DNA of 64,000 nt from contig CAYMTA010000009.1 of NCBI GenBank assembly GCA_964393275.1, forward strand, positions 53,544 to 117,543, read 5' to 3'. Below are positions 1 through 8,741 of this stretch, piece after piece. The first letter of the stretch is position 1; each line of letters starts with the position of its first letter. Position numbers and translations under genes: made by a program. The notes beneath the pieces were generated by a model. The model made no database searches, had not been told where the DNA came from, and saw nothing but the letters and a program-made list of their open reading frames with translations. Origin of the DNA: an uncultured Geminicoccaceae bacterium (lineage in GTDB: Bacteria; Pseudomonadota; Alphaproteobacteria; Geminicoccales; Geminicoccaceae).

Positions 1-150
1 GCCGCCCAGATCGACATCCGCGAAGGGCTCGCCGTCGCCTCGGACGGCTTCGTCGACGGCGATTTTCAGGTTCAGGTGGCCTCGACCGGCCTGGACGGCG
101 GCCTCTCGATCGGCTCCATGGTCAGCGAGGAGCCGGCCTTGGCCGCCTGA
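1..150 (+). CDS. 3' end of an unidentified CDS entering from the left edge
   Basis: Frame 1 is open from base 1 to TGA at 148-150 with GC-rich third positions. A hairpin terminator follows. Confidence 0.35.
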   Translation, partial: AAQIDIREGLAVASDGFVDGDFQVQVASTGLDGGLSIGSMVSEEPALAA

Positions 151-449: not shown

Positions 450-833
450 ATGCGTATGATTGCACTATCGCTCGTCTCGGGCGTTTGCCTGCTGGCCGCG
501 ACATCGGCCAATGCCGAAGGGGTAGCCCTCACCGATCACCAGCTCGACCAGGTGACCGCCGGCGCTCTCGAGCTTGGCGTCAGCCAATTGACGATGGGAA
601 CCATGTCTGCCAGCCGTTCGTTCGTCGCCTCGCCGCTGCTCCGCCAGGCAGTCAATGGCAGCCCAGCGCAACCTGACGAGAACCCACCCGTGCCTGCACA
701 GCCGGGCTTGCTGGAGATCATCTCGGGCGCATACTCCGATCAGAACAACGGCCAAGAGATTAGCAAGGCTCCTGTGCTAGGAAAGCTGTTCCTGTCACTC
801 CAGGTCTTCGGCCAGACTCCTTCTGCCCCATAG
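450..833 (+). CDS. Small secreted protein, VTAG-motif family paralog 1
   Basis: Internal ATG of the tracked ORF 255..833, preceded by GGGAG. Signal peptide MRMIALSLVSGVCLLAATSANA, then EGVALTDHQLDQVTAG (motif nt 528-563). Confidence 0.7.
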   Translation: MRMIALSLVSGVCLLAATSANAEGVALTDHQLDQVTAGALELGVSQLTMGTMSASRSFVASPLLRQAVNGSPAQPDENPPVPAQPGLLEIISGAYSDQNNGQEISKAPVLGKLFLSLQVFGQTPSAP

Positions 834-909: not shown

Positions 910-1356
910 ATGTCGCTCCTGAAAAAGGCGAGCGTTCTGTCAGCCTGTCTGCTGGCGACCGCCTCGATCGCCAACGCCGAGCAGGTCCGGTTGTCCATTG
1001 GCCAACTCGATCATGTCACAGCCGGCGCGATCTCGCCAATCTCGCCAATCTCGTCCATTTCGCCAATCCCGCCGATCGGTGGTGGGGCTGAGGCTCCCTC
1101 GCCCGGGGACCCGCCGGCGTCGACACCTGGACCGTCGGCACCCCCACCGGTTCGACTCACCCGGTCTGTGGGTGATGGCTCGGCTATGGCTTATGTGCCG
1201 ATAACGCCGGCCGGATCGATCACCGAGATCGGTCTCCGCGTCACACCCGGGCCCAATGGAACATCGGGCACCGCCTATGTCCGGGTGTCGTCGGAAGGCG
1301 GCGGCCCGATCACCTTGCCCGGCGTCAGCGCCACGGTTGTCCACAGCGGCAAGTGA
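910..1356 (+). CDS. Small secreted protein, VTAG-motif family paralog 2 (ISP-repeat, Pro-rich)
   Basis: Internal ATG of ORF 862..1356, preceded by GGGGGAAG. Signal peptide MSLLKKASVLSACLLATASIANA, then EQVRLSIGQLDHVTAG (nt 991-1026), followed by ISPISPISSISPIPPI. Confidence 0.7.
   Translation: MSLLKKASVLSACLLATASIANAEQVRLSIGQLDHVTAGAISPISPISSISPIPPIGGGAEAPSPGDPPASTPGPSAPPPVRLTRSVGDGSAMAYVPITPAGSITEIGLRVTPGPNGTSGTAYVRVSSEGGGPITLPGVSATVVHSGK
1030..1077 (+). repeat. Imperfect 9-bp tandem repeat (5 units, ATCTCGCCA-like) encoding (I-S-P)n
   Basis: Read directly: atctcgcca atctcgcca atctcgtcc atttcgcca atcccgccg atc. Confidence 0.8.
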
Positions 1357-1370
1357 GCTCGGATCAACCT

Positions 1371-3581
1371 CTACGTCGAAGCGCGTGATTGGGAGCAAAA
1401 GCGCTCCCACATCACGCGCAAGGCCCTTTCGATCTCGTGCCCAAAGAGCCGCTGATCGCAAAGCGCCGAGCTTGCCATGGCTTGGCGCTGGGCCGCGCGA
1501 TAATCGGCGAGACGCAATGGCTCCGTTGCCAGGCGGATGGCGATAGCAAGGTAGGCATCGGCGTTGCGCGCCACCCATTCCGGACGTCCGATAGCCCGAA
1601 GCAGGGTCTCGGTTTGCCTCGACACAGGCTGCCAGCCAGGCATGGTGACGATCGGCACTCCCATCCACAGGGCTTCGCAGCTCGTCGCCCCACCGCCGAA
1701 TGGAAACGGATCGAGGGCGATATCGACGTCGCCATACTGGCGCAGCACGGCAGCGTTGTCGGAAACACCACGCAGCTCGAGCCTGCCGTCCGAGACTCCG
1801 GCCCCGCGGATGGCCTCGCGTATCCTGGTCGCGACCGATGGATTGTCCAATGACGGCGACTTCAGGATAAGACGGGCAGTTGGCAACCGCTGGAGCAACC
1901 GGCACCAAAGCGCCAGCACTTCTCCTGTGAGCTTCGCCACATTGTTGAAGCTACCGAAGGTGATCCAGCCCTGGCGCAGCACGGGGGGCTCGGCGGGTTC
2001 CGGTGCGGTTGCCGGCGGCTCGTAGCAGAAGCGGCTGGGCGACAGGCGGATTACCCGTTCCGCGAAGAGCCCCTCCTCGCCCGGTGCAACGGCCACCTCG
2101 TCCATGATCGCATAATCGATCGCCTCCAGGCCGGTGGTGAACGGATAACCCAGCCAGGTTGCCTGGACCGGAGCCGGCTTGAGCGCGAAGCACCCGAGCC
2201 GGTTAAGCGCCGTGTGCCCGGATATGTCGATCAGGATGTCGATGCCGTCGGCGCGCACCTGCTCGGCCAAACGCCGATCCTCCATGCCGACGACCAAGCG
2301 CCAGCCATCCGCCAGCTCCTTGAACCGCGCGGTCATATTGTCTTCGCGGCCATTGCTCGAGTAGCAGATCACCGTGAAACGGCTGCGATTGAGCGCACGA
2401 AAAACAGCCATGAGCCAGTCACTTACCGCATGTCGGCAAAGCTCCGCCGAGACGATTCCGACCCGTAAGGGGCGAGTGGGGTCGGGGTCGTTCTGCCACT
2501 CCGTGAAACGGCCTGTCGGCTGGCCGAACCGTCGTCCCCACGCCGCGTGCTCCCGCGCGAGATCCTCCGGATGTTGGCTTGGATCGTAGAGGAGCGTGAG
2601 CAGCAGATTGCTATGGATGCGAGGATCATTCGGATCGATCGCGGAGGCACGCCGCAGGGCCGCCAGCGCATCGTCGATCAAACCCATGTCCCGCTTGATC
2701 TTGCCGATATTGTTGTAGGCGAAGGCGAAGTCGGGGCGTCGGGCCAGCACATCTTCATAACCTGCCAACGCTTCCTCGAAGCGGCCGAGCATCTCCAGCG
2801 TTTGAGCCCGATAGAAACGCGCGTCGAATTTCTCGGGGCTCAGCTCCAAGGCTCGGTCGAACGCAGCGAGCGCCGCCTGTCCCATCCCGTGGTCAATCTC
2901 GACCAGACCCAGCCCAATGAGAGCATAGACCGACTCCTCATGCTCCAGTGCCTGATCGAAGGCGTCCAACCCCTCCGCATAGCGGCCGAGCGCATGCAGG
3001 GCGTAACCCTTTTCGGCCCACGCACGACCGTGCTCCGGCGCACGCAGAAGAACAGCGTCGAGATCGGCGAGCGCGGCGTCGGGCTCTCCGGCGAGGCGCC
3101 GCGCCCCGGCTCGCGCAACGAGAATGTCGATGGAGCCCGGCACGGCCGCTAAGGCGGAATCGGCGGATGCAATGGCGGCTTCGTGTTGTCCGAGCTCCGC
3201 CAGGATGAGGATGCGCCATCGTTGGGCATCGATCATAGTCGGCTCGAGCTCAGTGAGCGACTCGAGCTTCGCCAGGGCGTCAGCACTGCGCCCAAAAGCG
3301 GTGAGGAGGATGGCAAGATTGTGCAAGGCCGAGACATAGCGCGGGTCCAAGGTGATTGCCCGCTCATAGGCTGCTATCGCCTCGGCCGGTTGCCCGATCG
3401 CGGTCAGGATGAACGCCTGAACACCATGGACGCGGGCGTACTCCGGATCCGCTTGGCTCGCCTCTCGCCAAAAGGCCTCGGCGCGGTCGTTCTCTCCCTG
3501 GTTGCACGCCGCCACGGCCAGATCGAGAAGCATGTCCAGCTCCGACCGTTCCCCGGACATCGCATGGCCAACCTCACGCAT
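1371..3581 (-). CDS. TPR-repeat protein with C-terminal GT41 (SPINDLY/O-GlcNAc-transferase-like) glycosyltransferase domain
   Basis: 736 aa with no signal peptide. The N-terminal half has many TPR-like repeats (AxxxYxxAlxldP pattern). The C-terminal half has the OGT/SPY-type pattern (GSFNNxxKL..., LDPFPFGGGATSCEALWMGVPIVT). Confidence 0.85.
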   Translation of the reverse strand: MREVGHAMSGERSELDMLLDLAVAACNQGENDRAEAFWREASQADPEYARVHGVQAFILTAIGQPAEAIAAYERAITLDPRYVSALHNLAILLTAFGRSADALAKLESLTELEPTMIDAQRWRILILAELGQHEAAIASADSALAAVPGSIDILVARAGARRLAGEPDAALADLDAVLLRAPEHGRAWAEKGYALHALGRYAEGLDAFDQALEHEESVYALIGLGLVEIDHGMGQAALAAFDRALELSPEKFDARFYRAQTLEMLGRFEEALAGYEDVLARRPDFAFAYNNIGKIKRDMGLIDDALAALRRASAIDPNDPRIHSNLLLTLLYDPSQHPEDLAREHAAWGRRFGQPTGRFTEWQNDPDPTRPLRVGIVSAELCRHAVSDWLMAVFRALNRSRFTVICYSSNGREDNMTARFKELADGWRLVVGMEDRRLAEQVRADGIDILIDISGHTALNRLGCFALKPAPVQATWLGYPFTTGLEAIDYAIMDEVAVAPGEEGLFAERVIRLSPSRFCYEPPATAPEPAEPPVLRQGWITFGSFNNVAKLTGEVLALWCRLLQRLPTARLILKSPSLDNPSVATRIREAIRGAGVSDGRLELRGVSDNAAVLRQYGDVDIALDPFPFGGGATSCEALWMGVPIVTMPGWQPVSRQTETLLRAIGRPEWVARNADAYLAIAIRLATEPLRLADYRAAQRQAMASSALCDQRLFGHEIERALRVMWERFCSQSRAST

Positions 3582-3643: not shown

Positions 3644-3682
3644 CAAAAAAGAAGAGCCCCATCTTGTGATGAGGCTCTTCTG
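3644..3682 (-). terminator. Rho-independent terminator downstream of paralog 3
   Basis: On the minus strand: AGAAGAGCC-loop-GGCTCTTCT followed by TTTTTT. A second hairpin AACAGCG/CGCTGTT sits at 3688-3708. Confidence 0.75.
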
Positions 3683-3760: not shown

Positions 3761-4135
3761 TCACGGTTGTGAGAACGACACCGAGCCGCTAACCGCCAAG
3801 GTGCCGCCCGAACGAACCCGACCGTTGTTGTTCAGGGAAGCGGCATCAATCTGGTTGGTGGCATAACCCTGCGTCGTGCGCACCGAGCTGAGCGAGGTGC
3901 CGATGGTGGCCGTGTTCGACGTGTTGCTCTTGCTCTCCGAAATCACGACCGCCTTGGTGGTGTTCCTGGTACGGACAGGACCGGTGATACCGAGGGCCAA
4001 ATCCAGATCCAGGTTGAGACCGGCGGTCACACCGTCCATCTGGCTGGCGCTGAGCTTCATGGGCTCGGCAGCCATGGCGCTGGTCGCCAGCAACGTGACG
4101 GCCGCACCGGCGAGAAACAGATTCTTCATCGACAT
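3761..4135 (-). CDS. Small secreted protein, VTAG-motif family paralog 3 (Ser/Thr/Asn-rich)
   Basis: AGGAGAAG RBS. Signal peptide MSMKNLFLAGAAVTLLATSAMA, then AEPMKLSASQMDGVTAG (nt 4019-4054). The mature part is rich in T/S/N/G/V. Confidence 0.75.
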   Translation of the reverse strand: MSMKNLFLAGAAVTLLATSAMAAEPMKLSASQMDGVTAGLNLDLDLALGITGPVRTRNTTKAVVISESKSNTSNTATIGTSLSSVRTTQGYATNQIDAASLNNNGRVRSGGTLAVSGSVSFSQP

Positions 4136-4212: not shown

Positions 4213-4240
4213 GTCCGGCCGGGCCATTGCCCGGCCGGAC
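4213..4240 (-). terminator. GC-rich stem-loop at the stop of paralog 4 (no U-tract)
   Basis: GTCCGGCCGGG-ccattg-CCCGGCCGGAC, an 11-bp perfect stem abutting the TAG stop. Confidence 0.4.
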
Positions 4241-4593
4241 TAATTCGCAAAAACACCTGTGAGGACGCCACCACCACCAGCAGCCGAGGTGATGCCGACC
4301 CCGCTGGCCTTGACGGAGGTCTGAGAGATGGCGAGCGCCTGAAAGTCACCCGACGAGGACGGCGGCGTCAACAACACGCTTCCCTCCGTCTGGGTCAGCG
4401 AGACCTGATAGAGGGTGATCGACGCGCCGCGGGCTGTCGCCAGTCCCGTGCGAGAAATCGCAAAACCACTCCAGAGACCCGCCGCCGTGACCGAATCCAG
4501 CGATGCTGCATCCAGCCTGACCGGCTCGCCGGCAAGCGCCACGCTGCCGACGCCAAGGAGGGCGATGCCCACAAGTCCGTTCAAGATGCGCAT
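4240..4593 (-). CDS. Small secreted protein, VTAG-motif family paralog 4
   Basis: Internal ATG of ORF 4240..4743. Signal peptide MRILNGLVGIALLGVGSVALA, then GEPVRLDAASLDSVTAAG (nt 4477-4515). Confidence 0.65.
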   Translation of the reverse strand: MRILNGLVGIALLGVGSVALAGEPVRLDAASLDSVTAAGLWSGFAISRTGLATARGASITLYQVSLTQTEGSVLLTPPSSSGDFQALAISQTSVKASGVGITSAAGGGGVLTGVFAN

Positions 4594-4801: not shown

Positions 4802-5254
4802 TTAAAAGATCGGGAACTCGCTGGCAACCGATGCCATGCCCACCGCGGCGACCTGCGCCGAGAAGAAGCCGGAGCCGTTAATTCTGACATTGATCGGAAT
4901 GGTCCAGACCTTCTGCCCGACGACATTGGTTGCGCCCACGCTCGCCGTTGCGGACGGCGGTGGTGCCACGCCACCAATGCCTATCGCCTTCGCCACGGCG
5001 ACGCCCTTCGTGACCGACAGCGACGGATTGCTGGTGCCCACCACGGTGCTCTCGAACGAGGCTTCCGAGCCCACGGTGCCCCAGGCTTGAGCGGCACCAT
5101 TCAGCGTGAAGCCGGAGACGGCGCCCGCGGTCACCGAGTCCATCTGGACCGCGTCGAGCCGCATGGGCTCGGCGGCCTGCGACGAGACGAGCGGCAGCGC
5201 CACACCCAAGGCGGCCAGCAGCGCCGCCCTCTTGGGGAAACCGGAAATCCGCAT
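4802..5254 (-). CDS. Small secreted protein, VTAG-motif family paralog 5
   Basis: Internal ATG of ORF 4802..5314. Signal peptide MRISGFPKRAALLAALGVALPLVSSQA, then AEPMRLDAVQMDSVTAG (nt 5123-5158). The C-terminus ends in ...EFPIF. Confidence 0.7.
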   Translation of the reverse strand: MRISGFPKRAALLAALGVALPLVSSQAAEPMRLDAVQMDSVTAGAVSGFTLNGAAQAWGTVGSEASFESTVVGTSNPSLSVTKGVAVAKAIGIGGVAPPPSATASVGATNVVGQKVWTIPINVRINGSGFFSAQVAAVGMASVASEFPIF

Positions 5255-5431: not shown

Positions 5432-5737
5432 CATTGAGCCGCGTCGAGGATTAAGCTTAACAGCCCGACACTTAATGGCTGGATGGAACAAGGAGTGATT
5501 TAAACTTATAGTTTAATCGCATCAGCCGCCGATGAACTTCTCGCATCGGGCTGGCACAGCCTGCCATGCCGGGAGCGCCGACGGACAGGCGATTCTTCGG
5601 GTCTGGGGCGCCAGATGGTTGCTTGGTCGCCCGGCGTGGCATTAGGGTAACGACCGGTCGCGTTCGCCATGAGCGGCATGCGCGGGAGTTGACCGTTTCG
5701 ACGGTTGATCTCTATCCCGCGTGGAGGAGGGAAAGTT

Positions 5738-6367
5738 TTGACGCACGCGAGCAGGCGGAGGTTTCTCGTCGGCGGTGCTCTTTTGGCGATGGGCGCTACC
5801 ACGCCGGGCTTAGCCGCGGCGCGGTCGGTCGAGAGCCTCAACGAGCGGCGCCACCATCAGGTCGTGATTCAGGAATTCGACATCAGTTGCGCCGCCGCCG
5901 CGCTGGCGACGCTGCTGACCTATCAGCATGGCGACCCCGTAACCGAGCGCCAGATCGCGCTGGGTCTGATCGATCGGCCGGAATACATCGAGAACCCGGC
6001 CTTGATCCGCCTGCGTCAGGGCTTCTCGCTGCTCGACCTGAAGCGCTTCGTGGATGGCCGTGGCTACGAGGGCATCGGCTTCGGCCAGCTCAGCTACAGC
6101 GATCTGCTCGAGCGGGCGCCGATCATCGTGCCACTCGACCTGCACGGCTTTCGACATTTCGTGGTTTTTCGTGGCGAGCTGGGCGACAGCGTCCTGCTCG
6201 CCGACCCGGCTTTCGGCAATCGCACCATGAGCCGGGAACGGTTCGAGCAGGCCTGGATCGATTTCCCGCAGATCGGCCGGGTCGGCTTTGTCGTCGAGCG
6301 GCGCGATGGCCTGATTCCGCCGAACCGCCTGGAGCCGACCTTGGCCGAGTTCCTCGTCATTCGCTGA
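5738..6367 (+). CDS. Stand-alone periplasmic C39-family cysteine peptidase (Tat signal)
   Basis: TTG start 6 nt after GGAGGAGGG. N-terminus is THASRRRFLVGGALLAMGATTPGLAAA (twin-arginine). Has the catalytic-type pattern QEFDISCAAAALATLL (Gln...Cys), and later HFVVF and ADP (His/Asp). Confidence 0.8.
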   Translation: MTHASRRRFLVGGALLAMGATTPGLAAARSVESLNERRHHQVVIQEFDISCAAAALATLLTYQHGDPVTERQIALGLIDRPEYIENPALIRLRQGFSLLDLKRFVDGRGYEGIGFGQLSYSDLLERAPIIVPLDLHGFRHFVVFRGELGDSVLLADPAFGNRTMSRERFEQAWIDFPQIGRVGFVVERRDGLIPPNRLEPTLAEFLVIR

Positions 6368-6391
6368 CCCTCATCAGAAGTGGTAGACTTC

Positions 6392-7570
6392 ATGCACCGT
6401 CGGCAACCGACCTCGACACGAGCACCGAACCTGCGGATCACGACCGTGGCGACGGCCGCCCTGCTGCTGCATTTGTCCGGCCCCGTCGCGGCCCAGGACA
6501 CAGGCACGGTCAGCGACCAGACCCTGCAGGAGGAGCTCAAGGCTCGCGACGCCGTGATCATCGAGCTGATGCACCGGGTCGACGAGCTCGAGCGGCGGCT
6601 GGGGGGAACGGAGGCGCCACCGGTCGCGGCGAAGGCCGCGCCGGCCCAGCCCGGGGAAGCACCGCCACCGGTCGAATCCGCCGAGGCGCCAGCCCCGGCA
6701 CCCGCCTCTCGTGGCCTGATCGATGTCGACGAGCTCGCCGCGGAGCGTGCGCTGGAGCGCACCCTGGTCGATGTGGGCGCGCTATTGCTGCCCGCCGGCC
6801 AGTCGGAGCTCGCGCCGGCGGCCGGCTTCACGCGACGCGATTCGAACTTCCCCACCCTCATCGGCGGGCAGGTCGTCAATGCGAACACCGAGCGCAACGA
6901 ATTCGCCTTCGACCTGGGCCTGAGCGTCGGACTGCCCTTCGATTCGCAGTTCGAGCTCAACCTGCCGTTCGATCTGGTCAACGAGCAGGGCAATCTGGAC
7001 ATCAACGGGGGCGTCGCGAGCTCAACCGAGCGCACCGGCTACGGGCTCGGTGACATCACGCTCGGCTTTGCCAAGACGCTGCTGCGCGAGGGTGAATGGC
7101 GGCCCGACCTCGTCGGCCGCGTCGTCTGGGACACGGCCACGGGCGATCAATTCGACGACGGGGTCTACCTCGGCAACGGCTTTCACCAGGTCAGCGGGCA
7201 GCTCGTCGCCGTCAAGCGCCAGGACCCGCTCGCCTTCGTCGGCGGCTTCACCTACAGCTACGCGTTCGAGGACGACGATATCAAGCTGGGCAGCGAGTAT
7301 GCCTTGTCGCTGGGCGCGGCCCTGGCCCTCAGCCCCGAGACATCGCTGAACGTCGCCCTCAATCAGACCTATTCCGACGATATCGAGGTCGACGGCGAGA
7401 AGGTCAACGGCAGCGATCAGCTGGCCGCCAGCTTCGACTTCGGCGGCTCGGCGATTATCGCGCCGCGCACGCTCTTCAGGTTGAACACCAGCATCGGCCT
7501 GACCGATGACGCGCCCGACTACTCCGTCCGCGCCACGGTTGCCTACCGCTTCAACACACCATTCTTCTGA
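6392..7570 (+). CDS. Outer-membrane beta-barrel protein with N-terminal coiled coil and Ala/Pro linker (FapF-like / MetA-pathway-type barrel architecture)
   Basis: Signal peptide ...LLLHLSGPVAAQD. Heptad-like segment DQTLQEELKARDAVIIELMHRVDELERRL, then an AP-rich linker. Alternating beta-strand pattern ending ...ATVAYRFNTPFF with a terminal Phe. A GTG at 6380 is an alternative start. Confidence 0.7.
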   Translation: MHRRQPTSTRAPNLRITTVATAALLLHLSGPVAAQDTGTVSDQTLQEELKARDAVIIELMHRVDELERRLGGTEAPPVAAKAAPAQPGEAPPPVESAEAPAPAPASRGLIDVDELAAERALERTLVDVGALLLPAGQSELAPAAGFTRRDSNFPTLIGGQVVNANTERNEFAFDLGLSVGLPFDSQFELNLPFDLVNEQGNLDINGGVASSTERTGYGLGDITLGFAKTLLREGEWRPDLVGRVVWDTATGDQFDDGVYLGNGFHQVSGQLVAVKRQDPLAFVGGFTYSYAFEDDDIKLGSEYALSLGAALALSPETSLNVALNQTYSDDIEVDGEKVNGSDQLAASFDFGGSAIIAPRTLFRLNTSIGLTDDAPDYSVRATVAYRFNTPFF

Positions 7571-8351
7571 CGGCCGCGAGGTGGCGTTGCGCCAGGAGCG
7601 CCACCTCGGTCCGGTTCTTGGCATTCAGTCGCCGCATGATCTGCCGGACATGCACCTTGACGGTGCTCTCGGTCATCCGCAGGCGGGTGGCGATCACCTT
7701 GTTCGGATGCCCTTCCTGGAGGATCTCCAGAACATCGACCTGCCGCGGCGTCAGCTCTTGTGACAGCGCCGGGCCGTCCGGGGCCGACTCGCTCGCCACG
7801 TCGCCGAGGGCGGGACGTCCCTCCTGCCTGAGCCACTGGCTGACGAGATCGCCCGGCACGAACATGCCGCCGGCCTGCACCAGGGACAGCGCCCTGCACA
7901 TCAGCGGCGCCTCCTCGGAGGTCGCGATGAAACCCATCGCACCGGCCGCCAGGGCGTTGCGCGCCTCCTCCGGCTCGGTGCGATCGGACAGCACGACCAC
8001 CGGCACCGAGTCGTGGTTGCCGACGAGGCGATCGAGGTCCGCGCGGGTGGCCGGGTCGTCGATCGACAGGCTGCCGACACTGTAGATGATCAGCGAGGGC
8101 CGGCCTTCCGGGGGCAGACCCTCGCGGGTCAGCTCGTCGACGGACACGGCGACGATCTGCTGGCTGAGCGCATCCGAGGCGCAGAGATAGCGCGAGATGC
8201 AAACCCGGCTGAACGGCCGGGGGTCGACGAGAGCCAGCCAGGGGTCGGGGCGCGGGGCAACCCCTGCTGGGACCGCACGAATCGCCCCGGAGGCTCTCGT
8301 TAGGGTGTCAGTGCCTGGCAGTGGATTGTTCGCTGATGACGTCGCTAACAT
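7551..8351 (-). CDS. LuxR/FixJ-type transcriptional regulator with degenerate receiver-like N-terminal domain
   Basis: C-terminal HTH: LTPRQVDVLEILQEGHPNKVIATRLRMTESTVKVHVRQIMRRLNAKNRTE. The ATG at 8351 is preceded by AAGGGGAG. The receiver-like region lacks an obvious DD pair or phospho-Asp context. Confidence 0.75.
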   Translation of the reverse strand: MLATSSANNPLPGTDTLTRASGAIRAVPAGVAPRPDPWLALVDPRPFSRVCISRYLCASDALSQQIVAVSVDELTREGLPPEGRPSLIIYSVGSLSIDDPATRADLDRLVGNHDSVPVVVLSDRTEPEEARNALAAGAMGFIATSEEAPLMCRALSLVQAGGMFVPGDLVSQWLRQEGRPALGDVASESAPDGPALSQELTPRQVDVLEILQEGHPNKVIATRLRMTESTVKVHVRQIMRRLNAKNRTEVALLAQRHLAAVRRMVC

Positions 8352-8741
8352 GATCGTCTCGCTCCCCTTCGATCCCGGCAACCAAAGTGGTAGGCGGAAC
8401 CCTTGCAGCTACGGGGCACTTAACCCTACCGATCGAGACGAGCATCTCCGGTAGAGTCTTTATGCTTAAGGCGCATTAATACAATCGATGAAATCGTCAT
8501 CTTTTGCAAGGGAGTATCGCTCACTCCCGCTGTAGAATAGTACCTACGGCGATGTTCAACCATCGGGCAATCGGCGCAATGACGCTGCGCCTTAATCGTC
8601 CATTAGCTTCATGGAATATCTCCGACTTAACCAAAGGTAGTGGGCCGCAGGTGAGAAAGCTCGCGGTACGATCGAATGCTCCTGCCGACGCACGTCGCCC
8701 GGCAATTGCCGCGTTCACGCTACGGTTGCTGTTTTCACATT

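Follow-up and report, generated by a model that had tools for sequence, protein, structure and literature searches.

A predicted TPR-GT41 glycosyltransferase encoded among the subunit genes of a Fap-like secretion locus in an uncultured Geminicoccaceae bacterium

The stretch of DNA analysed here, 64,000 nucleotides of contig CAYMTA010000009.1 from an uncultured Geminicoccaceae bacterium (the window), begins with a secretion locus in which the genes of five small proteins, S1 to S5, lie on both sides of a gene for a predicted cytoplasmic protein glycosyltransferase. The enzyme belongs to glycosyltransferase family 41 (GT41) and carries tetratricopeptide repeats (TPRs); gene and product are called GT below. 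The locus reads, in order, a gene for a 994-amino-acid (aa) cadherin-like protein (+), S1 and S2 (+), GT, S3, S4 and S5 (-), a C39 peptidase and a FapF-like barrel (+) and a LuxR-type regulator (-) (Table 1). GT is situated between S2 and S3 and is convergent with S2, the two stop codons being only 14 nucleotides apart. Each of the five small proteins starts with a signal peptide, which is followed by a leader of the form L-x3-Q-[LM]-D-x-V-T-A-[GA]. The C39/barrel system is present in a single copy in the source genome, and GT is the only GT41 gene in its 5 Mb. Against the NCBIfam models, the peptidase reaches 89 bits for FapD (cut-off 330) and the barrel 55.5 bits for FapF (cut-off 700), while S1-S5 gave no match to the Fap subunit models. 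Judged by the NCBIfam thresholds, the locus is Fap-like in design but stands outside the Fap system.

Table 1. Features of the glycosyltransferase locus in the window
Feature	Position	Strand	Basis and remarks
TPR + GT41 (OGT/SPINDLY-type) protein glycosyltransferase, predicted cytoplasmic (GT)	1371..3581	-	736 aa, ATG start; Pfam, AlphaFold2 model, PDB comparison
TPR superhelix, residues 14-330; presumed acceptor-binding domain	2592..3542	-	AlphaFold2 model; Pfam TPR_1, TPR_2 and related families
GT-B catalytic domain, residues 338-735	1377..2570	-	alignment to 7y4i
Predicted catalytic residues H384, N546 and K550; F628 at the SPINDLY Y744 position	2430-2432 (H384), 1932-1934 (K550), 1698-1700 (F628)	-	alignment to 7y4i
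Small subunit S1	450..833	+	signal peptide and leader; mature part 89 aa, 16% Ser+Thr
Small subunit S2	910..1356	+	mature part 109 aa, 23% Ser+Thr, ISP repeats
Small subunit S3	3761..4135	-	signal peptide, L-x3-Q-M-D-x-V-T-A-G leader; mature part 85 aa, 29% Ser+Thr
Small subunit S4	4240..4593	-	leader ends in VTAA; mature part 79 aa, 27% Ser+Thr
Small subunit S5	4802..5254	-	mature part 106 aa, 20% Ser+Thr
Terminator-like hairpin, 14 pairs and T-run, between S3 and GT	3650..3681	-	sequence
FapD/FilB-like stand-alone C39 peptidase	5705..6367	+	Pfam PF03412 2e-10; NCBIfam FilB 4e-28, FapD 2e-25, both below cut-off
FapF-like outer-membrane barrel	6380..7570	+	NCBIfam FapF 4e-15, below cut-off; Pfam Phenol_MetA_deg
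LuxR/GerE-type regulator	7551..8381	-	kept in loci with and without GT
3′ end of the 994-aa cadherin-like/Big_9 protein, without signal peptide; start about 2.8 kb upstream of the window	1..150	+	rival acceptor candidate

The GT product matches the Pfam family Glyco_transf_41 (PF13844; 6.9e-44, 150.4 bits against a cut-off of 25) and, in addition, many TPR families. An AlphaFold2 (AF2) model based on 52 homologues has a mean pLDDT of 93.4 and a pTM of 0.89. It folds residues 14-330 into 19 helices, corresponding to about 9.5 TPRs, which precede a two-lobed Rossmann-type domain. The N-terminus has neither an n-region nor a hydrophobic core. Its sole hydrophobic stretch (residues 16-27) belongs to the first TPR helix of the model, and GT is predicted to lack a signal peptide. 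Open reading frame, Pfam matches and model agree in this respect with a preliminary description of the same DNA, made from the sequence alone, which had noted a TPR-GT41 protein without signal peptide between the second and third small-protein genes.

That description had further raised the idea that GT glycosylates the small proteins before export, and it had left open whether the enzyme resembles OGT or the N-glycosyltransferase HMW1C. GT41 does include N-glycosyltransferases (NGTs), and four of the five small proteins do carry at least one N-x-S/T sequon, exactly as listed: VNGSP in S1, PNGTS in S2, RNTTK and SNTSN in S3 and INGSG in S5, with none in S4. HMW1C-style N-glycosylation of these sequons is nevertheless disfavoured by the placement of the enzyme. 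A phmmer search of the PDB sequences with GT ranked Arabidopsis SPINDLY first (E 1e-107, contiguous alignment over residues 265-730), followed by the OGT of Thermobaculum terrenum (TtOGT, 1e-91), human OGT (2e-71) and Xanthomonas OGT (XcOGT, 9e-37). The HMW1C/NGT structure 3q3e was matched with an E of 7e-12 and in the C-terminal lobe only. The same lobe accounts for the match to the NGT equivalog model NF049992 of NCBIfam, which scored 47.5 bits against a cut-off of 1000. Foldseek with the AF2 model reproduced the ranking, with SPINDLY (E about 1e-47) and TtOGT (TM 0.93, root mean square deviation 2.2 Å) as best hits. Moreover, GT has TPRs where NGTs have an all-alpha domain. By sequence and by model, GT is OGT/SPINDLY-type and not HMW1C/NGT-type.

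The sequons themselves argue in the same direction. When the mature parts were shuffled, 4.16 sequons were expected in S1-S5 compared to the five observed (P = 0.40), and four of five proteins with at least one sequon is likewise compatible with chance (P = 0.13). In alignments, a 90%-identical relative alone retains the sequons; every more distant orthologous subunit has lost them. A sequon enrichment in S1-S5 was rejected on these grounds, and the earlier caveat that the count could be chance was well placed. On this comparison, the sequons carry no signal and N-glycosylation is unsupported; we regard it as highly improbable.

Alignment to 7y4i showed that residues H495, K665 and N661 of SPINDLY are all kept in GT, as H384, K550 and N546. 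The essential pair of human OGT, H498 (equivalent to SPINDLY H495) and K842 (equivalent to K665), is thereby present as well. Mutation of His495 or Lys665 kills SPINDLY (PMC9715652). The His, Lys and Asn residues are invariant in all 26 fibre-linked GT41s described below, and so is a DPFPF/YxGG motif in these homologues from several families. We infer that GT is an active protein O-glycosyltransferase. At the position of SPINDLY Y744, GT has F628, and the fibre-linked enzymes always have Phe or Tyr. An aromatic residue at this site narrows the sugar pocket and disfavours GlcNAc (PMC9715652). Because of this residue, the donor of GT is probably a sugar smaller than GlcNAc. SPINDLY S496, T748 and H728 are replaced by Ala, Ala and Val, respectively, and the identity of the donor is not assignable from these replacements.

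Alternatively, GT might act chiefly through its TPRs, as a cytoplasmic holdase for subunits prone to aggregation or as a factor that targets them, while its GT domain is inactive or incidental, or its position next to the subunit genes might be meaningless. TPR proteins are often chaperones, SPINDLY S496 and T748 are unconserved and no sugar-nucleotide genes were found within this locus. However, invariance of the catalytic His, Lys and Asn residues and of the DPFPF/YxGG motif in 26 linked homologues is unexpected for a dead domain, and the linkage is both conserved and recurrent, with a dedicated clade. A purely non-catalytic or fortuitous role is thus very unlikely.

The linkage is most readily seen within the family Geminicoccaceae. 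Among 107 family genomes, 55 contain a GT41 match and 44 a C39 peptidase. All GT matches of 41-90% identity lie within about 4.3 kb of a C39 gene wherever the contig is long enough. This count comprises 17 genomes from four genera; four matches on short or fragmentary contigs (two in genome G020, one each in G072 and G078) were left out of it. At an identity of 40% or less, no GT41 match has a C39 gene in its neighbourhood; the shortest distance is 134 kb. In all family loci, GT is on the same strand as S5-S4-S3 and directly downstream of them, with S3 as its immediate upstream neighbour. The same arrangement was found on metagenomic contigs, where it is surrounded by different flanking genes. 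Because the flanking genes differ between loci, the gene cluster, as far as such comparisons tell, moves as a unit. Another 17 loci contain the C39-barrel pair, in most cases also LuxR, together with leader-bearing small genes but no GT. Across the loci compared, GT is an accessory that belongs to one subtype of C39/barrel system. A locus from the same genus (G105) with an 88% identical C39 peptidase and no GT was dismissed as a GT-less example: it also lacks S5, and its contig ends at the C39 gene, which marks an assembly break.

Several family loci deviate in detail. The orthologous GT of G104 (G104:C56:27646-29826) is interrupted by one in-frame TGA, and in G102 (L011/L015) both the C39 gene and the cadherin-like gene are broken into two frames. 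Such disruptions reflect decay of the locus or mistakes in assembly. In G074, one locus (L023:7245-13843) encodes two GT41 paralogues with leader-bearing small genes between them, and the two enzymes fall into two different subclades of the fibre-linked clade.

The association is not confined to this family. A sample of 401 alphaproteobacterial genomes contained 23 from outside the family with a FapD-like C39 peptidase. In five of these 23, representing four genera and four families, a GT41 gene is found no more than 12 kb from the C39 gene, compared to a chance expectation of about 0.2 genomes derived from gene counts and genome sizes (Poisson P about 1e-4). A maximum-likelihood tree of 63 GT41 catalytic domains united 25 of the 26 fibre-linked enzymes, from four families, in one clade with a support of 97/92. 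Besides them, this clade contains just two metagenomic proteins, which are near-identical to linked enzymes. Outside it are Arabidopsis SPINDLY (AtSPY) and the whole set of 20 unlinked GT41s taken from this family and class. Because the tree places 25 of 26 linked enzymes in one clade and all unlinked ones outside, the link to FapD/FapF-type loci is, in phylogenetic terms, a property of a GT41 subfamily and not an accident of this genome. The occurrence of the gene elsewhere without such neighbours, which the preliminary description would have counted against a connection with the small proteins, was not observed for the orthologous clade. GT is thus very probably dedicated in function to the fibre locus.

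Linked loci of other families also suggest what kind of sugar may be involved. In one of them, L051, which comes closer to the Fap system than the window's locus does, GT is followed by FapB-like, FapC-like, FapD-like and FapE-like genes, one further gene and a FapF-like gene; all five corresponding Fap NCBIfam models are matched clearly, though below threshold (FapF 392 bits, FapC 118 bits). Three other linked loci (L052:14436-15218; L053:5129-5899; L056:9948-15440) have a glucose-1-phosphate cytidylyltransferase-like (rfbF-like) gene after GT. In L056, a dehydratase/epimerase gene and three paralogous C-methyltransferase-like genes also follow. By gene content, GT is part of a glycosylation unit in the loci with sugar-nucleotide genes, and this unit is complete in L056. 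There are hints that the donor in L052, L053 and L056 is an unusual deoxy-sugar, possibly CDP-linked and methylated. The source genome of the window encodes homologues of the L056 sugar genes on another contig (C14:73809-80655), unlinked to the fibre locus, with identities of 58% for the dehydratase/epimerase, 47% for the C-methyltransferase-like protein and 40% for the rfbF-like protein. This cluster could supply the donor sugar.

Further features of these loci are worth recording. In the recognizable fapB-C-D-E-F operon of L051 (L051:3963-12782; G264:C3), the TPR-GT41 gene occupies the slot that FapA has in Pseudomonas, and immediately past FapF come a GT2-like and a methyltransferase-like gene (L051 800-3873). 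The GT of L056 is a 1453-aa double GT41. In L054 (L054:5561-15366; G126, 44% GC), the FapF-like barrel and C39 genes adjoin a secretion ATPase-like gene, a platform-like gene and a divergent GT41 gene. The same locus contains two identical 186-aa pilin-like genes and encodes two further proteins with a D-x-L-A-E-V-T-A-L-G-type leader. Loci of family f159 (L053:9839-12050; L052:7798-10485) encode subunit-like proteins of 346-456 aa with tandem N-D-T-x-x-D...A-T-N-[ST]-P-Q-T-G repeats, which had no match among family models. Their neighbour, a protein of 258-285 aa, has a double-glycine leader, L-S-D-N-E-L-x-E-L-R-G-G.

Which proteins are modified by GT is less clear than its dedication to the locus. 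The small proteins are Ser/Thr-rich as first described, with 16-29% Ser+Thr in their mature parts, and their number and composition vary with GT. Loci with GT contain three to eight leader-bearing small genes, those without it one to three. Mature subunits have 22% Ser+Thr in the former and 14% in the latter (locus-level Mann-Whitney P 2e-5, the loci not being phylogenetically independent). In genomes that contain both locus types, the Ser+Thr fractions with and without GT are 0.220 and 0.134 (G104), 0.227 and 0.162 (G102) and 0.213 and 0.200 (G088). Patterns of the type [ST][AG][ST] are 3.4-fold more frequent in subunits of GT-containing loci (2.3 versus 0.7 per 100 aa). Most of these subunits constitute one sequence family that is largely missing from loci without GT. 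Alignments of the individual subunit types are too shallow and too divergent to define conserved Ser/Thr sites. Two other approaches were abandoned. The tetrapeptide NTAT, shared by S3 and the FapC-like protein of L051, was discarded as an acceptor motif, as it occurs in only one of 96 subunits from GT-containing loci. A proteome-wide Ser+Thr background calculated from six-frame open reading frames (minimum 400 aa) was not used: inflated by spurious high-GC frames, it came out at 6.8%, which is implausible.

A competing candidate acceptor is encoded in the same locus. The 994-aa protein (L016:7166-10150, +) consists of five cadherin-like/Big_9 repeats, has no signal peptide and heads the S1-S2 string. 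In loci of genus g20, an unrelated 641-aa RTX/DUF4114-like protein, also without signal peptide, is found at the same position. GT might act on these large adhesin-like proteins and not, or not only, on the subunits, in parallel to HMW1C and HMW1; a large adhesin is the best-studied target of a bacterial GT41. Signal-less proteins remain in the cytoplasm until export, and the cadherin-like repeats are rich in Thr and Ser. Such a repeat protein occurs at the same position in those GT-containing loci of genus g1 whose contigs reach that far and in five of seven g20 loci, and BLAST with both proteins as queries found neither of them in loci without GT. However, the two proteins are mutually unrelated, whereas the loci have in common an orthologous GT (45% identity) and subunits of the S3-S5 type. 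Nor did BLAST find a homologue of the one or the other in GT-linked loci outside the family, where FapB/FapC-type or other repeat subunits are encoded instead. In addition, the orientation of GT follows S5-S4-S3 and not the large gene. Because the large proteins are not homologous to each other, in contrast to GT and S3-S5, and have no homologue in linked loci of other families, we rank them second as putative acceptors and consider this reading unlikely. For the small subunits, O-glycosylated on Ser/Thr before Sec export, we see about an even chance. What persists of the initial proposal is the tie between GT and the secreted small proteins, borne out by synteny in four genera, by recurrence and by the clade, whereas its HMW1C-style N-glycosylation and sequon argument finds no support.

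The expression of GT has a bearing on a further alternative. The hairpin between S3 and GT probably attenuates read-through from S3. Because it separates the two genes, GT would be expressed either by attenuated read-through, a frequent arrangement behind the genes of abundant subunits, or from its own promoter. Expression apart from the subunits, as the hairpin suggests, might fit a regulatory enzyme which, like eukaryotic OGT and SPINDLY, acts on transcription regulators (PMC9715652). Such an enzyme would control fibre production by modifying cytoplasmic proteins, be it the LuxR-type regulator or general targets, and leave the exported proteins unmodified. A Yersinia GT41 is reported to modify many cytoplasmic proteins (PMC11329713), and a LuxR-type regulator is always in the locus. 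But LuxR is equally present in loci without GT, so that it does not explain the presence of GT, and GT sits among the subunit genes and not beside the regulator. Related loci couple GT to sugar-nucleotide and FapB/FapC-type genes, and both the number and the Ser/Thr content of the subunits are higher where GT is present. We consider a regulatory function quite unlikely.

Modification of the small subunits can be imagined as follows. Domain architecture, conservation of the essential residues, cytoplasmic location and genetic linkage were computed here, and the other steps of the mechanism are our reconstruction. The superhelix of about 9.5 TPRs would capture new, unfolded precursors of S1-S5, most plausibly those of the Ser/Thr-rich S3-S5 type encoded on the strand of GT. 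With a nucleotide sugar as donor, the GT-B domain would attach one small sugar residue to Ser/Thr hydroxyls. Glycosylated precursors would then pass the inner membrane via Sec, lose the VTAG leader to the C39 peptidase and be exported by the FapF-like barrel. The sugars might decorate the fibre, restrain premature aggregation, or both. On a broader scale, the GT41 clade might be an ancient accessory module of Fap-type fibre or functional-amyloid secretion in Alphaproteobacteria. By O-glycosylation in the cytoplasm, it would keep subunits that tend to aggregate soluble and competent for export, and the resulting extracellular fibres would be glycosylated. We advance this interpretation tentatively, as a possibility that falls short of an even chance.

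Several observations speak against modification of the small subunits by GT. Many loci with C39, barrel and leader-bearing proteins run without GT, and glycosylation is consequently not intrinsic to the export pathway. The Ser/Thr contrast is confounded by shared ancestry, as most subunits from GT-containing loci belong to one sequence family, and a conserved acceptor motif was sought in these subunits and not found. Two residues relevant to SPINDLY activity are not kept in the fibre-linked enzymes, S496 being replaced by Ala or Pro and T748 being variable. The strong terminator-like hairpin means that co-transcription of S3 and GT is not assured, and GT-containing loci within the family also carry the large signal-less adhesin-like proteins as alternative acceptors.

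If subunit glycosylation holds true, Fap-like biogenesis gains a sugar tag that is attached before Sec export. If the GT41 clade is such an accessory module, it would provide the first glycosylated Fap-type fibre and a bacterial counterpart of the O-GlcNAc that restrains amyloid formation. The GT41 subfamily delimited here would have a natural substrate that can be identified, unlike most bacterial OGT homologues, and would be a simple system in which to study the effect of O-glycosylation on amyloid or fibre assembly. For annotators, the clade helps to recognize fibre-linked GT41s among the many genes that are called "SPINDLY family" without further assignment.

Cytoplasmic glycosyltransferases that serve one exported filament have been described for type IV pilins, for flagellins and for HMW adhesins; to our knowledge, there is none for Fap-type systems. 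A full-text literature search linking Fap systems (FapF, FapD) with glycosyltransferases found no paper. In Haemophilus and Actinobacillus, the GT41 enzyme HMW1C/NGT glycosylates the HMW1 adhesin while it is still in the cytoplasm, ahead of Sec export; a single locus encodes the enzyme, its substrate and the outer-membrane exporter. The locus in the window resembles this arrangement in that a GT41 gene accompanies secreted candidate substrates and an outer-membrane exporter. In contrast to GT, to which they are only weakly matched, the HMW1C/NGT enzymes glycosylate Asn in N-x-S/T, and an all-alpha domain takes the place of the TPRs. SPINDLY and TtOGT share with GT the combination of TPRs and GT-B fold without the metazoan intervening domain, the His495, Lys665 and Asn661 equivalents and an aromatic residue at position 744. 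SPINDLY differs in using GDP-fucose on nucleocytoplasmic regulators, in the residues that are Ala (S496, T748) and Val (H728) in GT and in its position outside the fibre-linked clade.

Further parallels come from filament-associated enzymes. In Caulobacter crescentus, the TPRs of the cytoplasmic FlmG bind paralogous flagellins, which its GT domain O-glycosylates before export (PMC7591256). TPR and GT modules and several paralogous filament subunits are common to both systems, a likeness at the level of description. FlmG serves flagellar type III export with a pseudaminic-acid donor, and our survey of open reading frames and Pfam matches in the locus revealed no flagellar or pse genes. The cyanobacterial Ogt (Synechococcus elongatus Synpcc7942_0051; Nostoc OgtA) is a cytoplasmic TPR-GT41 protein encoded beside pilA and needed for PilA glycosylation; ogt and pilin genes are adjacent in 38% of cyanobacterial genomes, and a conserved Lys is required for subunit glycosylation (PMC9306852). 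Like Ogt, GT combines TPRs with GT41, has no secretion signal and is encoded beside genes for exported fibre subunits. Ogt, however, serves a type IV pilus and uses UDP-GlcNAc as donor in vitro, whereas GT accompanies a FapD/FapF-type system with leader-bearing small subunits and has Phe, where its linked homologues have Phe or Tyr, at the SPINDLY Y744 position of the sugar pocket. With the Fap system of Pseudomonas (fapABCDEF), the locus shares a FapD-like C39 peptidase and a FapF-like barrel, and its relative L051 has FapB-F homologues, although S1-S5 are unlike any modelled Fap subunit and all NCBIfam scores stay under the equivalog cut-offs. The design of a glycosyltransferase gene beside its filament genes was thus already known; new here is that the partner of the cytoplasmic TPR-glycosyltransferase would be a Fap-like peptidase-plus-barrel secretion system.

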